From contig NC_091990.1 in the NCBI RefSeq assembly GCF_044704955.1, positions 9,052,001 to 9,116,000 on the forward strand: DNA of 64,000 bases, given 5' to 3'. Made by a program: the position numbers and the translations under genes. Under the pieces are notes generated by a model that saw only the letters and a program-made list of their open reading frames with translations, did not search any database and was not told the origin of the DNA. Positions 386 through 59,279 of this stretch are shown one piece after another. The first letter of the stretch is position 1, and each line of letters opens with the position of its first letter. This DNA is from Pristiophorus japonicus (Eukaryota).

Positions 386-493
386 CTGCCGCCGGCCCAG
401 GTGGGCCTCCCACAGATACACGGCCCAGGAGAAGAGCAGCACCGAGTGGAAGATGCGGCTCTCGAGCCCGAGCTCGGTCAGGCCGCCAAACAT
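386..493 (-). CDS. ZMPSTE24: ZMPSTE24 (CAAX prenyl protease 1 / FACE-1) coding exon 1; gene continues off the left edge
   Basis: ATG at 493-491 gives MFGGLTELGLESRIFHSVLLFSWAVYLWEAHLGRRQ, then a phase-0 donor CAG|GTCAGT. Matches the human N-terminus (..[26 protein letters not shown]), which also ends exon 1 at this Q. Too short for the ORF track. Confidence 0.93.
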
Positions 494-12425: not shown

Positions 12426-12665
12426 TTCGAGCAATGTGTGTGCGCCAGTCAGAGCCCGGCACTTTCAAGACAGAATGGGAGAACACGCTTGAAAAACGTA
12501 AAAGGGGGTTTGGGGAACTGAGTGGTCAGAGAACCAAAGTCAATGGACAAACAAGAGAGGACATTTTGCAAACATGAATCTCTTTACTGTGACAGTACAA
12601 CACATTGTCGGGTATGTAGACGGTGAGGTTTAGTCTGGGGAGTGAGTTGTGAGTGAGGGGTGTAG

Positions 12666-12983
12666 TCACACTGTGCGGTGAGAGTCCAGCTCGGTGCTAA
12701 AGGCACTGGGAGTTTGACATTGTGAACAAACACAGCTGGAGGAACGGCTGGTGCACTCCGAGCCTGTTACTCGGCGAGTCATCTTCTTCGCAAATTTCAT
12801 AATCATATCTTCCATGTCTCGGATTTTAATCTCCATCTGCTGAAGTTTCTTCATGATCTTCTCCTGGATGGCCAACCCTCGGCGGAAGCGCTTGATTTCT
12901 TTCCTTTTCTTCTCATTTCTCAAAGATTTTTTGTCGGGCACGGATTCTATTTTCAGAATGCACGCATATTTCTCCCACATTTT
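12666..12983 (-). CDS. TMCO2: TMCO2 orthologue, coding exon 2 (coiled coil plus CxCxxC tail)
   Basis: Acceptor TGTGTCTGTTGCAG|AAA ATG TGG, phase 0. Translation ..RRGLAIQEKIMKKLQQMEIKIRDMEDMI..SSSCVCSQCQTP..stop resembles human TMCO2 [34 protein letters not shown]. Same strand and upstream of ZMPSTE24, as in human. Variant polyA signal AGTAAA at 12588-12583. Confidence 0.8.
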   Translation of the reverse strand, partial: KMWEKYACILKIESVPDKKSLRNEKKRKEIKRFRRGLAIQEKIMKKLQQMEIKIRDMEDMIMKFAKKMTRRVTGSECTSRSSSCVCSQCQTPSAFSTELDSHRTV

Positions 12984-17807: not shown

Positions 17808-18098
17808 CATTAACATGGTCTGCACCCTACGTTTCTTTATAAAGTTAATGAAGAAACATATCAAGACGATTATGCAGGCGACCAGAAAGGCTCTGGCGAG
17901 GAAATGATCAAGGATAAAGCTCAAATCGGTTTCCTGTGATGAGTGGGATGTACACCAGGATTTGGAGGATGTGCTGGTGAAATCATTCGGGATGGTTTCC
18001 GTCCGAACCCGTTGCCAGGCTCGGCATCCAGTATTTTCACACTGGTCAGGATGAGTGCCCCGTCTGGAAGAAAAGAACTCGGAAAGCAATGCGGCCAT
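17808..18098 (-). CDS. TMCO2: TMCO2 orthologue, coding exon 1 (single transmembrane segment)
   Basis: ATG at 18098; ..SQETDLSFILDHFLARAFLVACIIVLICFFINFIKKRRVQTMLM|GTTAGT donor, phase 0, joining exon 2 in frame for a protein of about 202 aa. A hydrophobic helix followed by a basic KKRR stretch parallels human ..QQTSLGLLDNL..LLGIGIYALWKRSIQSIQ. Confidence 0.7.
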
Positions 18099-30960: not shown

Positions 30961-31648
30961 AACTAAATAATATTTTTGACAAAATTAAGAGAAAGCCTGT
31001 CATCTCCTGATGGTTTCTGCTGGGCCTCTCCCCAATAATAAACCAGAATATCCACCATCTAACTGTGAGCAACGCTATGGGAGAATAGCAATTGAGAGGG
31101 ATCAACAATTTCTCATTTATTATAAAATTAACAGTGATACGCAGCTGAGCTATAAATTAGTGAGATAAATATGAATATATTCAAATAGTATAGTAATTCA
31201 TTTTTCTAAATGCTGTTTCTGAGGTACACACATACTCACATTCACACAATCGCATTCACACACTCACTAACATTCTCACATTCTCACACACACTTTCTCA
31301 CTCACATTCACACATTCTCACAGACACTCTCTCTCACACACATGTATGTAAACACGTTCTTTCTAGGCATTGCTGAATAGCAATAAGGAGTAGGAACACG
31401 ACCCGATTTCTGTCCTTCCCTCAAATCAATGTTTCGCGTCCTCAATGCTCACTCCTGCTGAGACCGCCTCACTAAGCACGTTCTTGGAGCCTCCTGGTTA
31501 CTGTTCGGGTAAAACAAACAATGAAAGGCCTTTCGGGCTTATCACCAAACTGGACCTTTCAAATCTACAGTGACCTTTACTGGGAATAAAGCGAGAAAAT
31601 TCAGGGAATCTTTGTTTACATTTTATTCTGTCCAAGCAGTGTGGAGAT

Positions 31649-31987
31649 TTAAGTCGAACACTGTGCTGGGTGTTTCCTGGTGTGAGGGGATTCAGTGATC
31701 ATTGAGCCGTCTCCGCTCGGGAACAGAGCCGAGTTCTGGCACCAATAGCAGTCGCAGCTCTGAGGAGAAGACCGGGGCCTCCTTTGCCGCCTCACCTGAT
31801 CGGCCACATAAACAACCAAATGTTCCACCGAGGCGAGGTTACTCTCCAGCTGATAGAGTCTCCGGGCCAGCCGCTCTTGGACAAATATCCCTCTGCGCAA
31901 ACACTGGATCTCTTGCACAGATAAAACTTCAGCAGCCTTGCTGGGAGCAAATGTTCGCTTACAGTAATCTGTCATCTTATATAATAT
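31649..31987 (-). CDS. TMCO2-like paralogue, terminal coding exon (coiled coil plus CxCxxC); first in-frame ATG at 31975 gives 108 aa
   Basis: Acceptor TTTTATTCCCACAG|ATA, phase 0. (ILYK)MTDY..QEIQCLRRGIFVQERLARRLYQLESNLASVEHLV..PQSCDCYWCQ aligns by eye to exon 12666-12983 (KEIKRFRRGLAIQEKIMKKLQQMEIKIRDMEDMI..SSSCVCSQCQ). AATAAA at 31627-31622, about 22 nt after the stop. Confidence 0.68.
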   Translation of the reverse strand: MLYKMTDYCKRTFAPSKAAEVLSVQEIQCLRRGIFVQERLARRLYQLESNLASVEHLVVYVADQVRRQRRPRSSPQSCDCYWCQNSALFPSGDGSMITESPHTRKHPAQCST

Positions 31988-32176
31988 CTGTGGGAATAAA
32001 AATCATTGAATCATTTATATCTGTCGGTAATAAGAGATCATGACATCGTCTCTTTAGAATTGATGTGGAGGAACCTTTACCTAGTTATATATCTTTCTCC
32101 TCCTCCCACCATCCCAGCTGTACCGGTCACTCCAGCACTAAATGTTACTGGGTGTTCTCCCCGGAATTTTCCAGAT

Positions 32177-34669
32177 CCCCCCCCCCCCCGAAACAACCGC
32201 CGCCCCCCACTCAAACCCCCCCACCTCCAAACAACCCCCCCAAACAAAACCCCCCCACTCAAACCCCCCCACCTCCAAACAACCCCCCCAAACAAACCCC
32301 ATCACTCAACCCCCCCAAACTAAACCCCCCAACTCAAACCGCCACCCCCCACTTCCAAACAACCCACCCCCCTAAACAAACCCCCCCCACTCAAACACCC
32401 CCACCTCCAAACAACCCCCCCCCACTCAAACACCCCCACCTCCAAACAACCCCCCCCCACTCAAACCCCCCCACCTCCAAACAACCCCCCCAAACAAAAC
32501 CCCCCCACTCAAACCCCCCCACCTCCAAACAACCCCCCCAAACAAACCCCATCACTCAACCCCCCCAAACTAAACCCCCCAACTCAAACCGCCACCCCCC
32601 ACTTCCAAACAACCCACCCCCCTAAACAAACCCCCCCCACTCAAACACCCCCACCTCCAAACAACCCCCCCCCACTCAAACACCCCCATCTCCAAACAAC
32701 CCCCCCAAACAAACCCCATCACTCAACCCCCCCAAACTAAACCCCCCAACTCAAACCGCCACCCCCCACCTCCAAACAACCCACCCCCCTAAACAAACCC
32801 CCCCACCTCCAAACAACCCCCCCCCACTCAAACACCCCCACCTCCAAACAACCCCCCCCCACTCAAACACCCCCACCTCCAAACAACCCCCCCACTCAAA
32901 CACCCCCACCTCCAAACAACCCCCCCCACTCAAACACCCCCACCTCCAAACAACCCTCCCCCACTCAAACACCCCCATCTCCAAACAACACCCCCCCAAA
33001 CAAAACCCCCCCACTCAAACCGCCACCCCCCACCTCCAAACAACCCCTCCAAACAACCCCCCCCCAAACAAAACCCCCCCACTCAAACCGCCACCCCCAC
33101 CTCCAAACAACCCCTCCAAACAAACCCCCCCCAAACAAAACCCCCCCACCTCCAAACAACCCCCCCAAACAAACCCCCCTCACTCAACCCCCCCCAAACA
33201 AAACCCCCCAACTCAAACCGCCGCCCCCCACTCAAACACCCCCACCTCCAAACAACCCCCCCCCCACTCAAACACCCCCACCTCCAAACAACCCCCCCCA
33301 CTCAAACACCCCCATCTCCAAACAACACCCCCCCAAACAAAACCCCCCACTCAAACCACCACCCCCACCTCCAAACAACCCCTCCAAACAACCCCCCCCC
33401 AAACAAAACCCCCCACTCAAACCGCCACCCCCCACCTCCAAACAACCCCTCCAAACAAACCCCCCCCAAACAAAACCCCCCAACCTCCAAACAACCCCCC
33501 CAAACAAACCCCCCTCACTCAACCCCCCCAAACAAAACCCCCCAACTCAAACCGCCACCCCCCACCTCCAAACAACCTCCCCTCAAACAAAACCCCCCAC
33601 CTCCAAACAACCTCCCCAAACAAAACCCCCCCACTCAAACACCCCCACCACCAAACAACCCCCCCTCAAACAAAACCCCCCACCTCCAAACAACCCCCCC
33701 AAACAAACCCCCCTCACTCAACCCCCCCCAAACAAAACCCCCCAACTCAAACCGCCACCCCCCACCTCAAAACAACCCACCCCCCCAAACACCCCACCTC
33801 CAACAACCCCCCAACAAACCCCCCCCAAACAAAACCCCCAACTCAAACCCCCGCCCCCCACTCAAACACACCCACCTCCAAACAACCCCCCCTAAACAAA
33901 CCCCCCTCACTCAAACACCCCCCCCAAACAAAACCCCCCAACTCAAACCCCCGCCCCCCACTCAAACACCCCCACCTCCAAACAACCCCCCCCCAAACAA
34001 AACCCCCCCACCTCCAAACAACCCCCCCAAACAAACCCCCCTCACTCAACCCCCCCCAAACAAAACCCCCCAACTCAAACCGCCACCCCCCACCTCCAAA
34101 CAACCCACCCCCCCAAACACCCCACCTCCAAACAACCCCCCCAAACAAACCCCCCCCAAACAAAACCCCCCAACTCAAACCCCCGCCCCCCACTCAAACA
34201 CACCCACCTCCAAACAACCCCCCCCTAAACAAACCCCCTCACTCAAACACCCCCCCCAAACAAAACCCCCCAACTCAAACCCCCGCCCCCCACTCAAACA
34301 CACCCACCTCCAAACAACCCCCCCCCAAACAAAATCCCCCACCTCCAAACAACCCCCCCAAACAAACCCCCCTCACTCAACCCCCCCCAAACAAAACCCC
34401 CCAACTCAAACCGCCACCCCCCACCTCCAAACAACCTCCCCTCAAACAAAACCCCCCCACCTCCAAACAACCTCTCCAAACAAAACCCCCCCACTCAAAC
34501 ACCCCCACCACCAAACAACCCCCCCTCAAACAAACCCCCCCCACCTCCAAACAACCCCCCCAAACAAACCCCCCTCACTCAACCCCCCCCAAACAAAACC
34601 CCCCAACTCAAACCGCCACCCCCCACCTCAAAACAACCCACCCCCCCAAACACCCCACCTCCAAACAAC
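32177..34669. repeat. 2.5-kb C/A-rich satellite-like tract (CACCTCCAAACAACCCCCCC / CACTCAAACCCCCC units), G/T-rich on the minus strand
   Basis: Direct inspection; runs into a 200-N assembly gap at 34670-34869. Confidence 0.95.
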
Positions 34670-34869
34670 NNNNNNNNNNNNNNNNNNNNNNNNNNNNNNN
34701 NNNNNNNNNNNNNNNNNNNNNNNNNNNNNNNNNNNNNNNNNNNNNNNNNNNNNNNNNNNNNNNNNNNNNNNNNNNNNNNNNNNNNNNNNNNNNNNNNNNN
34801 NNNNNNNNNNNNNNNNNNNNNNNNNNNNNNNNNNNNNNNNNNNNNNNNNNNNNNNNNNNNNNNNNNNNN

Positions 34870-35940
34870 GGAGGAGGGAGAGGAGGGAGGAGAGAGTGGG
34901 GGGGAGAGAGGGGGAGGAGGGAGGAGAGAGTGGGGGGGAGAGAGGGGGAGGAGGGAGGAGAGAGTGGGGGGGAGGAGGGAGGNNNNNNNNNNNNNNNNNN
35001 NNNNNNNNNNNNNNNNNNNNNNNNNNNNNNNNNNNNNNNNNNNNNNNNNNNNNNNNNNNNNNNNNNNNNNNNNNNNNNNNNNNNNNNNNNNNNNNNNNNN
35101 NNNNNNNNNNNTGGGAGAGAGAGGGGAGGAGGGGGTGGGAGAGGGGAGGAGGGGGTGGGAGAGAGGAGGAGGGGGTGGGAGAGAGAGGAGGGAGGGGGGG
35201 AGAGAGAGAGAGAGAGGGGGGGGAGAGAGAGAGGGGGGGAGAGAGAGAGGGGAGGAGGGGGTGGGAGAGAGGAGGAGGGGGTGGGAGAGAGAGGAGGGGA
35301 GGGGGTGGNNNNNNNNNNNNNNNNNNNNNNNNNNNNNNNNNNNNNNNNNNNNNNNNNNNNNNNNNNNNNNNNNNNNNNNNNNNNNNNNNNNNNNNNNNNN
35401 NNNNNNNNNNNNNNNNNNNNNNNNNNNNNNNNNNNNNNNNNNNNNNNNNNGGGAGAGAGACTGGGGAGGGGGGGGGGGAGAGAGAGAGACGAGGGGGGAG
35501 AGAGAGAGAGAGAGTGACTGGGGAGGTGGGGAGAGAGACTGGGGAGGGGGGGGGGGAGAGTGACGGGTGAGGGGGGGAGAGTGACGTGGGAGGGGGGGAG
35601 AGAGACGGGGGAGGGGGGGAGAGAGACGGGGGAGAGAGGGGGGGGAGAGGGGGGGGAGAGGGAGGGGGGGGAGGGGGAGAGAGACGGGGGAGGGGAGGGA
35701 GAGAGACGGGGGAGAGGACGGGGGGGGAGACGGAGAAGAGGACGGGGCGGGAGAGAGGGAGAGACGTAGGGAGAGAGAGAAGGAGGGGGAGAGTGAGAGA
35801 CGGGGCGGCGGAGTGGGAGAGAGACGGTGGGGAGGGGGGGGAAGAGAGAGAGTCTGGGGTGGGGGCTGAGGGGGGGAGAGATAGCGGGAGCGGGGAGCGG
35901 GGAATAGAGAGCGAGACGGGGGTGGGGTGGCGGGGAGAGA
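34870..35940. repeat. G/A-rich polypurine low-complexity tract containing two assembly gaps
   Basis: GGAGAG/GGGGGA repeats; N runs at 34983-35111 and 35309-35450. Confidence 0.9.
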
Positions 35941-35989
35941 GAGGTTATTTATATTATCTTGGTTTTTTGTTTCAGGATCATTGGCAGAA

Positions 35990-36189
35990 ATGACTCGGTC
36001 GAAGAGGATAGGTAATCACAACAGTGACAAAAAGAAAAGTGTATCCAAACTGTGGAAAACAAAAAGGCGAACTAAAGATTTAGACCAGATTCATGAAGAT
36101 ATGAAACCTGAAAATGCAGACAGATTACTGCACCAGGAAATAGATAGCGACGCCACTGGAAGTGCCCAATTCTATTGCTTACACTGCGC
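35990..36189 (+). CDS. ZNF593: ZNF593 (Bud20 homologue) first coding exon
   Basis: [38 protein letters not shown]; upstream acceptor TTTCAG|G at 35975/35976; donor GC|GTAAGT, phase 2. Confidence 0.95.
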
Positions 36190-55727: not shown

Positions 55728-58449
55728 TCTTTTAGAGTCTACCTGCAAAACATAAACATTAAACTGTGCCACCCGACCTGGGTGACACACCAGACATTTA
55801 CAAGGCCCTTTTTTCCTTTTTTTGGTTTTTTTTGGTGTTTTTTTGGTTTTTTTTTTGGTTTTTTTTTTTGGGCACTAAAATCACAATTTCTCCGGTGCCC
55901 CCTATAAAAGGGAAGGGGACACTAAAAGCACCGGCAATTAAAACAAATTAAACTTTAAAACGTAAAATCAAATTAAAATTTGGTTGCCGGGCGTGATGAT
56001 GCACTCCAGTCCCTCCGGTGCCCACCTCTCGCGGAAGGCCGCGAGCGTACCGGTGGACACCGCGTGCTCCATCTCCAAGGACACCCTGGACCGGATGTAA
56101 GAGCGGAAGAGAGGCAGGCAGTCAGGTTGAACGACCCCCTCGACCGCCCGCTGCCTGGACCGGCTGATGGCACCCTTGGCCGTGCCCAGGAGCAGTCCTA
56201 CGAGGAGGCCTTCGGACCTACCCGCTCCCCTCCGCACAGGGTGCCCAAAGATCAGGAGAGTGGGACTGAAGTGCAGCCAGAATTTCAGGAGCAGCCCCTT
56301 CAAATAGTGGAACAGGGGCTGCAACCTTGTGCACTCCATAAAAACATGGAACACGGACTCCTCCAGACCGCAGAAATTGCAGGCGGCCTGGGAGTCCGTG
56401 AACCGGCTTAAAAATTTGTTGCACGGCACTGCTCCGTGCACCACCCTCCAGGCCAAGTCCCCGATGAATAGTGGGAGGACCCCTGCGTAGAGTGCCCTCC
56501 ATCGGGGACCCCCGCCTCCTCCGGACGGCAAGATGGTACGCCATGGCGTGTCCGGACGGCCGGCGAGGATGGCAAAGTTGAGGGTGTGCAGGAGCAGCCC
56601 GTACAGGAAACCCCTCCGCGCGGAACTGAAAGGCACGGAGGGGATTTCCCCGAGGCGGCTCAAGTTGTGAGGCGCCGGCCCCCGAGGGAGGTTCCGGGGT
56701 TTGGCGCCGATGAGGAATTCCGTCCGGACGGGGGTCAGTTCGGACGGGATCTCCCCACGTGCTTGAGCCTCCTCGATGCACCTAACGGAGTCAGGGCCCA
56801 GAGCTGTTTTTAGCGACTCGATGGCATCGGCCGCGTGGCGGACGTTGGCAGAATTTAGGCGCCGCGCCAGCGTGTCTGGTGCCATCCAGCCCGCTCCTCC
56901 GCCATCGAGCAGGTCCCTGACCCTGGTCACCTCACCAGCCACAGCCCTCTCTTCCGACCGCCACATAAAGCCTCGGCCGTGGAGGTACGGATTCCCGAGC
57001 AGCGGCTCCTGCAGGACGGCCGCCACTCCAGCCGGCGGAGAGCTGCGCTTGGTGGAGACTTTGTTCCAGACCCTGATGAGTTCCCTGTAAAAGACAGGCA
57101 GCTCCCGGAGGGCGGTCCTGGCACCCCCCAAGTTCACAAACAGGAGCTGCGTGTCATAATTGAGGTCGAGCTGCTGGCGGAAGAAATACCTCGCCAGAGC
57201 GCACCACCTAGGAGGGGGCTCGACGTAAAGGTATCTCTGCAGGGTCTGAAGACGGAAAGTCGCGAGCTGGGCGCTGACGCACACCAACGACTGACCGCCC
57301 TCCTCAAGCGGGAGACTCAAGACCGCGGCAGAGACCCAGTGCTTCCTGTTGTTCCAGAAGAAGTCCACCAGCTTCTTCTGTATCTTGGCGACAAACGCAG
57401 GGGGAGGGGTCAAAGTGACCAGCCGGTACCACAGCATTGCGGCCACCAGCTGGTTTATGACTAGCGCTCGACCCCTGTAGGACAGCACTCGGAGCAGTCC
57501 TGTCCAGCGCCCTAGGCGAGCGGCGACCTTGGCCTCCAGCTCCTGCCAGTTCGCCGGCCAGGCTCCCTCGTCGGGGCTAAGGTAGACTCCCAGATAGAGG
57601 AGATGGGTCGTGCTCCAGGCAAAAGGCCTGAGCTCCTCCGGCAGGGAGTCCACCCGCCACTGACCCACCAGGAGTCCGGAACATTTCTCCCAGTTGATCC
57701 TGGCGGAGGACGCGGCCGAGTAAATCTCCTGGCACTCACGCATCCTCCGCAGGTCAGCGGGATCCTCTACCGCGAGGAGCACGTCATCGGCGTAAGCCGA
57801 GAGGACGACCTCCACGCCCGGCCCTTGCAGAGCCAGTCCCGTCAACCTCGTCCGCAAGAGGCGCAGGAAAGGCTCCACGCAAACAGCATATAACTGGCCG
57901 GACATGGGGCATCCCTGGCGCACCCCTCTCCTAAAGCGAAGGGGCGCCGTCAAGGACCCGTTAACCTTAATCAGACACTCCGCGGCGGCGTACAAAAGTC
58001 GGATCCGGGCGACGAAATGCGTCCCGAACCCGAAAGCGCGCAGAGTTCCGAGCAGATAGTCGTGATCCACCCTGTCGAACGCCTTCTCTTGGTCGAGGGA
58101 TAGGAAGGCGACCGACAGACCAGCCTCCTGGGAACAATGGATGAGGTCCCGGACCAGATGGATGTTATCGTGGATTGTCCGGCCCGGGACCGTGTATGAC
58201 TGGTCGGGGTGGATCATGTGGTCCAGCACGGCACCAAGGCGAGCAGACATCGCCCTGGCGAAGATTTTGTAGTCCGTGCTGAGGAGGGAGACCGGGCGCC
58301 AGTTCTTAAGGAGGCGGAGATCGCCCTTCTTAGGCAGCAGGACGATGACTGCCCTGCGCCAAGAGAGGGGCATCTCCCCGGTCGCCAGACTTTCCCCCAG
58401 GACCCGCGCGTAGTCGCTCCCCAGGACGTCCCAGAACGCCCTGTGGAAC
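55728..58449 (-). mobile_element. Tx1-like (L1 group) non-LTR retrotransposon, 5'-truncated and apparently young
   Basis: TGAAAC duplicated at 55722-55727 and 58450-58455; GC-rich; uninterrupted ORF2 portion plus 3'UTR. Confidence 0.92.
55968..58449 (-). CDS. Tx1-like ORF2 fragment: reverse transcriptase plus C-terminal Cys/His zinc motif (endonuclease missing)
   Basis: KNWRPVSLLSTDYKI, SLDQEKAFDRV, GVRQGCPMS, AYADDV, CNFCGLEESVFHVFMEC; about 826 codons without a stop. The ORF-track start (MFQ) comes from the CR1 flank. Confidence 0.88.
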
Positions 58450-59279
58450 TGAAACACAAAAGGTTAGTATGCAGGTGCAGCAAGTGATCAAGAAGGCCAA
58501 TGGAATCTTGGCTTTTATTGCAAAGGGGAGGGAGTATAAAAGCAGGGACGTCTTGCTACAGCTGTACAGGGCATTGGTGAGGCCACACCTGGGATACTGT
58601 GTGCAGTTTTGGTTTCCATATTTACGAAAGAATATACTTGCTTTGAAGGCAGTTCAGAGAAGGTTCACTAGGTTGATCCCGGGGATGAGGGGGTTGACTT
58701 ATGAGGAAAGGTTGAGTAGGTTGGGCCTCTACTCATTGGAATTCAGAAGAATGAGAGGTGATCTTATCGAAACGTATAAGATTATGAGGAGGCTTGACAA
58801 GGTGGATGCAGACAGGATGTTTCCACTGATAGGGGAGACTAGAACTAGAGGGCATGATCTTAGAATAAGGGGCCGCCCTTTAAAGCAGAAATGAGGAGAA
58901 ATTTCTGCTCTCAGAGGGTTGTAAATCTGTGGAATTTGCTGCTTCGGAGAGCTGTGCAAGCTGGGACATTGAATAAATTTAAGACAGAAATAGACAGTTT
59001 CTTAAACGATAAGGGAATAAGGGGTTATGGGGAGTGGGCAGGGAAGTGGAGCTAAGTCCATGATCAGATCAGCCATGATCTTATTGAATGGCGGAGCAGG
59101 CTCGAGGGGCCTTATGGCCTACTCCTGCTCCTATTTCTTATGTTCTTATGTTCTTATCCTCATTTACCACATTACCGCAGTGACCACTTCAAAAAGTACC
59201 TCATTGGCTGTAAAGTGCTTTGGGACGTCTGATGGTCATGAAAGGCGCTATATAAATGCAAGTCTTTCTTACTCTGTCT

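Follow-up and report, generated by a model that had tools for sequence, protein, structure and literature searches.

TMCO2 is a single-copy, testis-expressed gene at the RLF-ZMPSTE24 locus of mammals, and the human gene has two coding exons divided by a phase-0 intron just after the transmembrane (TM) segment. In a rat study, the protein is reportedly found at the acrosome. Mouse Tmco2 knockouts are fertile according to PMC12917576, which calls the gene limited to mammals. Mouse TEX46 is described in PMC10957234 as testis-specific, with one TM at residues 34-51 of 165 and the stop codon in exon 2; unlike those of Tmco2, Tex46 knockouts are sterile. In the goat, TEX46 (chr2:6,109,430-6,116,042) abuts KDM1A, which begins at 6,116,805 (PMC12538952, Table S13). 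TMCO5 is a further likeness: PMC6687282 describes it as a testis-specific coiled-coil protein that spans the membrane once and is located on the manchette. It differs in that its coil comes first and its TM is C-terminal, whereas the TMCO2 copies described below carry the TM before the coil. Kinship with TMCO5 or with a tail-anchored SNARE-like spermatid protein found no Pfam or fold match.

The window analyzed here is a 64,000-nucleotide stretch (positions 9,052,001 to 9,116,000) of the chromosome-scale contig NC_091990.1, hereafter C14, of the shark Pristiophorus japonicus. In place of the single mammalian copy, the genome of this cartilaginous fish has a predicted three-gene TMCO2 cluster: copy a, which is TMCO2 proper, copy b and copy c (Table 1). 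Copies b and c are new, unannotated and fast-evolving TMCO2 paralogues. The exon at the center of this analysis is probably the second exon of an old TMCO2 duplicate that keeps its TM, with a 209-aa product acting as a sperm-head membrane tether like TMCO2 and TEX46.

Table 1. Positions of the features of the TMCO2 cluster and its neighbors, in window coordinates unless a contig (C14 or the unplaced contig C4227) is named.
Feature	Position	Strand	Details
ZMPSTE24 (presumed), likely first coding exon	386..493	-	Synteny marker; later exons left of window
Copy a, coding exon 2	12666..12983	-	105 aa + stop; PF15844 45.8 bits
Copy a, coding exon 1	17808..18098	-	97 aa, TM helix, phase-0 donor
AATAAA, putative poly(A) signal	31622..31627	-	21 nt past copy b stop
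Copy b, coding exon 2	31649..31987	-	112 codons + stop; long helix (coiled-coil-like), SCxCxxC motif, phase-0 acceptor
Copy b intron, non-array 3' part	31988..32176	-	GTAAAG donor-like site near 32076
C/A-rich tandem array, locus-specific	32177..34669	.	Inside copy b intron; also opens C4227 (1-794), same orientation
200 N	34670..34869	.	Array end; inferred position of C4227; the N itself is no evidence (may be a mask)
ZNF593-like (presumed), first coding exon	35976..36189	+	Begins at splice acceptor; without Pfam name
Copy b, coding exon 1	C4227:4294-4584	-	97 codons, TM helix, ATG, phase-0 donor AAG/GTAAGT
RLF last exon	C4227:29156-34906	-	1916-aa frame; PF25580 TPR_Rlf 186.5 bits (first 1635 residues scanned)
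KDM1A	start near C14:8950350	-	PDB E=1.9e-25; 61 kb from copy c start
Copy c, exon 1	C14:9011834-9012007	+	58-codon TM exon, ATG, phase-0 GTTAGT donor, 1.8 kb upstream of exon 2
Copy c, exon 2	C14:9013814-9014086	+	Phase-0 acceptor, coil pattern, SCACLYC

Copy a provides the reference for the family in this genome. Its exon 2 is 77-86% identical to proteins of skate, catshark, electric ray and chimaera (4 among 39 candidates). Three of these four orthologues are 202 aa long, matching the 97+105 residues of the copy a exons; two further orthologues came from their clusters, and all six pass the PF15844 cut-off. The closest is the catshark protein, with 140/162 sites in common. The chondrichthyan orthologues are all entered as 'uncharacterized' (XP_032900806.1, XP_055512565.1, XP_038674434.1, XP_069751312.1 and XP_042194527.1), so the TMCO2 family in sharks is already on record though unnamed: databases tag the copy-a orthologues PF15844. 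Downstream of copy a, the exon at 386..493 was named ZMPSTE24 from its translation, and we take it to be the first coding exon of that gene; exons with PF16491 lie 5-17 kb beyond it, and a later exon has a PDB match at E=6.9e-16. As a separate observation, the first 215 nt after the copy a stop (12450-12665, minus strand) hold no AATAAA, and the only candidate there is an AGTAAA about 80 nt on; copy b, unlike copy a, has a canonical poly(A) signal.

Judged from its sequence, the window exon of copy b is real and is part of an old second TMCO2-family gene, tandem with the first and with its predicted frame kept. The first-pass annotation had described an open minus-strand exon with an acceptor, a stop and an AATAAA about 22 nt on, and all of these are present; the acceptor, ttttattcccacag, is pyrimidine-rich and in phase 0. 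Its claims of a likeness to TMCO2 exon 2, and of an old duplication with little shared DNA identity and a preserved frame, hold as well: no DNA-level match was found between the coding exons of loci a and b, and the protein likeness is clear and above chance. BLASTP aligned the two second exons at 20/70 identical residues, and their Smith-Waterman score was 94 vs 27.2+/-4.8 for shuffled sequences, none of the 2000 shuffles scoring as high. In a six-frame search of the 5.9-Gb genome with copy b exon 2, which gave 4 matches among 24 candidates, the best non-self match was copy a exon 2 (E=0.0046).

Profile searches against the TMCO2 family, a check that the first-pass annotation had proposed, point the same way. 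For copy b exon 2 scanned alone, the top Pfam family was PF15844 TMCCDC2 (E=0.0035; 17.9 bits, below the cut-off of 27). A profile built from the TMCO2 proteins of five other species was applied first to 8147 and later to 12,727 ORFs, drawn from 344 kb of C14 and the whole of C4227; it found copy b exon 2 at E=8.7e-6, against 0.7 for the best unrelated ORF among the 12,727, and recovered both exons of copy a, both of copy b and exon 2 of copy c. AlphaFold modeled a helix over residues 24-69 of copy b exon 2 (pLDDT 83-97). Hydrophobic residues occupy 7/8 of the a/d heptad positions in copies a and b alike, and S77, C78, C80 and C83 are invariant across 6 aligned rows. A fold search with the exon 2 model gave no match at E<=0.001 among the 68 listed. 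Public contigs from three runs showed 0 differences over parts of 31658-32095, and these may be the assembly's own source and not independent of it.

Upstream of this exon, the earlier statement that no TM exon is visible holds within the window: minus-strand positions 31988-35975 contain no TM-like open stretch, the best KD19 being 1.72, from the G-rich array. As a candidate for coding exon 1, the segment 32077-32176 fails: it has neither a TM nor a Pfam match, and its open frame is out of phase with exon 2. A frame ending at the donor-like site near 32076 would run into a stop five codons inside copy b exon 2, which rules it out for that role.

A TM-coding exon 1 was found on an unplaced contig of 160,333 bp, C4227. 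Searching the genome with copy a exon 1 returned C4227:4297-4584 on the minus strand at E=1.6e-11, the next of 11 matches being at 0.16; the reverse search with copy b exon 1 returned copy a at E=2.7e-11, followed by 1.8 (19 matches). The two first exons are of equal length and align without gaps, with 33/97 codons encoding identical residues, and the copy b ATG sits directly after an in-frame stop. The TM of copy b occupies residues 69-87 (KD19 3.1), is followed by KRS and aligns ungapped onto the copy a TM; AlphaFold modeled a helix over residues 59-96, with pLDDT 89-94 over residues 71-90 and disorder before it. Scanned alone, copy b exon 1 matched no Pfam family. Splicing the C4227 exon to the window exon gives a predicted protein of 209 aa, which scored 85.5 bits against a profile made from 5 orthologues of other species that pass the cut-off. 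Each exon of copy b is the reciprocal best match of its copy a counterpart, with matching phase-0 splice sites, and copies a, b and c have the same phase-0 junction just after the TM. Since the contig with the matching TM exon has its likely place in the copy b intron, this gene has likely kept its membrane helix, and the two exons would be spliced across an intron of at least ~6 kb to yield a 209-aa single-pass protein.

The predicted protein resembles TMCO2 in having a single TM followed by basic residues, a long C-terminal helix with the pattern G..QE..L..L.Q.E and the SCxCxxC motif. The gene resembles it in having two coding exons with a phase-0 split just after the TM and a locus between RLF and ZMPSTE24, the RLF side of which rests on the inferred placement of C4227. 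Copy b differs from the TMCO2 orthologues in being ~30-37% identical to them, where copy a is 55-86% identical, and in its shorter TM-to-coil linker and longer tail.

The proposed placement of C4227 draws on array sequence, strand, synteny and the way in which the exons complement each other. The first bases of the contig (C4227:1-241) match window 34422-34669, the last 248 bases of the array, at 97%. The window array shares 361 of the 604 distinct 21-mers of C4227:1-800 in the same orientation and 0 in the opposite one; elsewhere in the window, in the further contig DNA examined and in 100 kb of left flank, 0 of them are present. Of the 7 occurrences of an array 29-mer in 5.9 Gb, the window array accounts for 6 and C4227 for the remaining 1. 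The strand and side of copy b exon 1 on C4227 fit a position upstream of the window exon. RLF, whose first exon we take to lie near C4227:130,300, has its full-identity match in the assembly only on C4227, the other two matches, located on different contigs, being paralogues at 70% and 46%, and it was not found on C14; because of this single full-identity match, C4227 is unlikely to be a haplotig.

Together, these data argue strongly that C4227 lies between position 34669 of the window and the ZNF593-like exon, which would give a 160-kb orphan contig, and RLF with it, a chromosomal position. On this placement the genes probably run RLF, copy b, copy a, ZMPSTE24, each on the minus strand, in agreement with the human order RLF, TMCO2, ZMPSTE24 on one strand. 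The three human genes lie within one 435-kb block (PMC2921284). No read or long contig was seen joining C4227 to the window, and the array copies of the two match at 92-97%, which is not a clean overlap. The right-hand join is weaker and likewise without an exact overlap: all 3 occurrences of a window-side 30-mer are on C14. C4227 closes with a CpG-rich stretch and then a GA tract; GA tracts also begin the window sequence past the N, and the tracts of the two sides align at only 69-82%. For the gene beyond, which we name ZNF593-like as an assumption, no CpG-island promoter was seen in the window left of its exon. As an observation on that gene, the CpG-rich segment C4227:159750-160333 is a likely promoter with a non-coding first exon.

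To describe the fate of copy b, substitutions between copies a and b were counted over 162 codons, giving dN 0.60, dS 1.51 and dN/dS ~0.4; exon 1 alone, taken whole and ungapped, gave dN 0.56 and dS 1.43. A simple counting method was used and dS is near saturation, so these values are rough. The bootstrap range of pS-pN was 0.12-0.36. In neutral simulations, 4/5000 frames remained stop-free after half of the divergence and 1858/5000 after 5% of it, which excludes a long decay of copy b and does not exclude a recent one. Sites that are invariant in four other species are conserved in copy b at 32/85, vs 19/77, a borderline enrichment (P=0.054; exon 1 alone, P=0.018) that gives little backing to a living gene. 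From two intact frames at dS ~1.5 and dN/dS ~0.4, we infer with moderate confidence that copy b is still a functional gene.

Either copy b is very ancient or it has been evolving at a much higher rate than copy a; fast evolution is common in duplicates of reproductive genes. A word-based search with exon 2, in a collection with few chondrichthyan proteins, found copy b orthologues among 0/5 and 0/147 candidates. The ESM Atlas gave no usable match for copy b, and none of 5 exon products had an exact match on look-up; orthologue searches of this kind are weak for split or fast-evolving genes. With the catshark protein as query, ESM Atlas leads stayed below 0.9 (0.80 for an unnamed 160-aa cluster and 0.79 for TMCO2). 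The 5 inner branches of an 8-protein tree all stayed open, with copies b and c on long branches. Site patterns joined copy b with copy a in 13 cases vs with the chimaera protein in 7, a slight lean that, without an outgroup, gives no date.

Other readings of these data differ on where exon 1 belongs, whether it is used and whether the gene is alive. C4227 might belong elsewhere, with its exon 1 derived from a rearranged haplotype or from a fourth copy, which would leave the window exon 2 an orphan; the contig is indeed unplaced, its array overlap is imperfect and its right-hand join is compositional only. Yet C4227 itself is without an exon 2, no spare exon 1 was found in 344 kb of C14, strand and side fit, the array 29-mer occurs nowhere else and RLF was not otherwise found on C14, which makes this reading extremely unlikely. 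We consider it very unlikely that copy b is a TM-less gene encoding a soluble 108-aa coiled-coil partner of TMCO2, as the first-pass annotation had proposed, or, in a weaker form, that a minor transcript from an intron promoter skips exon 1. The window itself is without a TM exon, the donor-like site near 32076 is present, and an in-frame ATG at 31975, four codons into exon 2, has A at -3. Copy a exon 2, however, also has Met at its second codon, which makes an early ATG a trait of the family; a complete, phase-matched TM exon 1, of the kind that the proposal had itself named as counting against its TM-less part, exists on C4227 and is bound to the intron by the locus-specific array; and the intactness of this exon at dS 1.4 and dN 0.56 implies use. 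A complex prediction for the coiled coils of copies a and b scored 0.03 vs a mark of 0.34, and speaks neither for nor against their pairing. The soluble-partner reading arose because of the assembly break.

It is also possible, if unlikely, that copy b died recently or is barely expressed, its open frames then reflecting a decay that began not long ago and proceeds slowly in this lineage. Such a history would suit a copy that is far more diverged than copy a (47 vs 110 matches to the chimaera protein over 162 sites), that has no orthologue in the protein collection, that has lost the first stretch of copy a's exon 2 and that differs in its tail. Against this, the exons, start codon, splice sites, TM helix, Cys motif and AATAAA are all intact, and pS exceeded pN in 2000/2000 bootstraps; the collection holds few chondrichthyan proteins, and even copy a gave only 4 clusters.

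For copy b as a functional, TM-bearing gene, a role can be proposed by analogy. Because basic residues follow the TM, the positive-inside rule would put the short N-terminus in the lumen and the coil with the Cys motif in the cytosol. Expression in spermatids would be expected from the family (PMC12917576 and PMC6687282). The protein might then tie membranes of the acrosome, or those associated with the manchette, to the cytoskeleton of the sperm head, as has been suggested for TEX46. As a guess, the three cysteines could bind metal across a dimer or be acylated.

The first-pass annotation had spoken of a tandem pair, which is outnumbered by a third copy ~38 kb left of the window. Copy c has two exons and a predicted product of 148 aa. 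The five-species profile found its exon 2 at E=1.4e-7 (best unrelated ORF 0.7), Pfam scored that exon at 21.6 bits for PF15844, and its best genome-wide non-self match was copy a (E=2e-4). Exon 1 of copy c scored E=0.82 against the profile when taken alone, and it is assigned on its position, its phase and the common 'E.IP.DF' stretch. The genome-wide searches missed copy c, so further copies elsewhere are possible. Copy c stands tail-to-tail with ZMPSTE24 and head-to-head with KDM1A, and is the nearest recognized gene to the KDM1A 5' end among the ORFs listed. In this it resembles goat TEX46, also a neighbor of KDM1A (PMC12538952).

TEX46 and the TMCO2-family copies are alike in having one TM near the N-terminus and the stop codon in exon 2 (PMC10957234 for TEX46). 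Scores for the published TEX46 TM motif were 12 for copy c, 10 for copy a and 13 for copy b, and do not favor copy c. A further comparison used PF17671 DUF5531, which we take to be the TEX46 family. At its cut-off of 25 bits, 4/6 copy-a orthologues pass (28.5-34.6), the other two scoring 22.9 and 23.2; copy a exon 2 scored 22.6 bits, and neither exon of copy b or c, each scanned alone, matched. A genome-wide DUF5531 search returned 16 weak matches, 15 of them with internal stops and the other being copy a. A separate TEX46 gene was not found genome-wide by searches that also missed copy c. We found no paper naming DUF5531 or PF17671. As an observation in its own right, chondrichthyan TMCO2 proteins pass the PF15844 and PF17671 cut-offs both, which suggests that the two families are one.

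On balance we lean slightly toward TMCO2 and TEX46 being paralogues from one cluster that predates the jawed-vertebrate split, of which the shark keeps KDM1A, c, ZMPSTE24, a, b and RLF and which mammals broke. Such a break would leave TEX46 beside KDM1A, and TMCO2 between RLF and ZMPSTE24. If this is true, the sperm-head role is at least as old as the cartilaginous fishes, and the fertility of the Tmco2 knockout could reflect cover by TEX46; with TMCO2 (dispensable) and TEX46 (essential for mouse male fertility) as one family, redundancy becomes directly testable. Tandem duplicates of testis genes are commonplace, and it is the cluster linking the TMCO2 and TEX46 positions that deserves further attention. 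The lineage extends beyond the published ranges, which are 'limited to mammals' for Tmco2 (PMC12917576) and 'amphibians to mammals' for Tex46. A search by title and abstract start, with most subscription papers outside its reach, found no TMCO2 paper on fishes; TMCO2 with 'shark' gave one match, by its title and abstract start an unrelated review. No paper naming both TMCO2 and TEX46 was found, again with most subscription papers outside the search.

Several features of the surrounding DNA were also recorded. Inside RLF introns, C4227 carries two insertions, at ~79,200-83,500 (plus strand) and 98,800-101,200 (minus strand), with frames of 381 and 346 aa; we take them to be retrovirus-like, with pol-like pieces and, by their motifs, env-like 381- and 346-aa frames. 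The window has an 831-aa open frame in a CpG-rich stretch at 55968-58463 on the minus strand, presumably a LINE-like reverse transcriptase element. In the right flank, an exon at C14:9142652-9143008 on the minus strand presumably belongs, by its motif, to a TLDc-domain gene.
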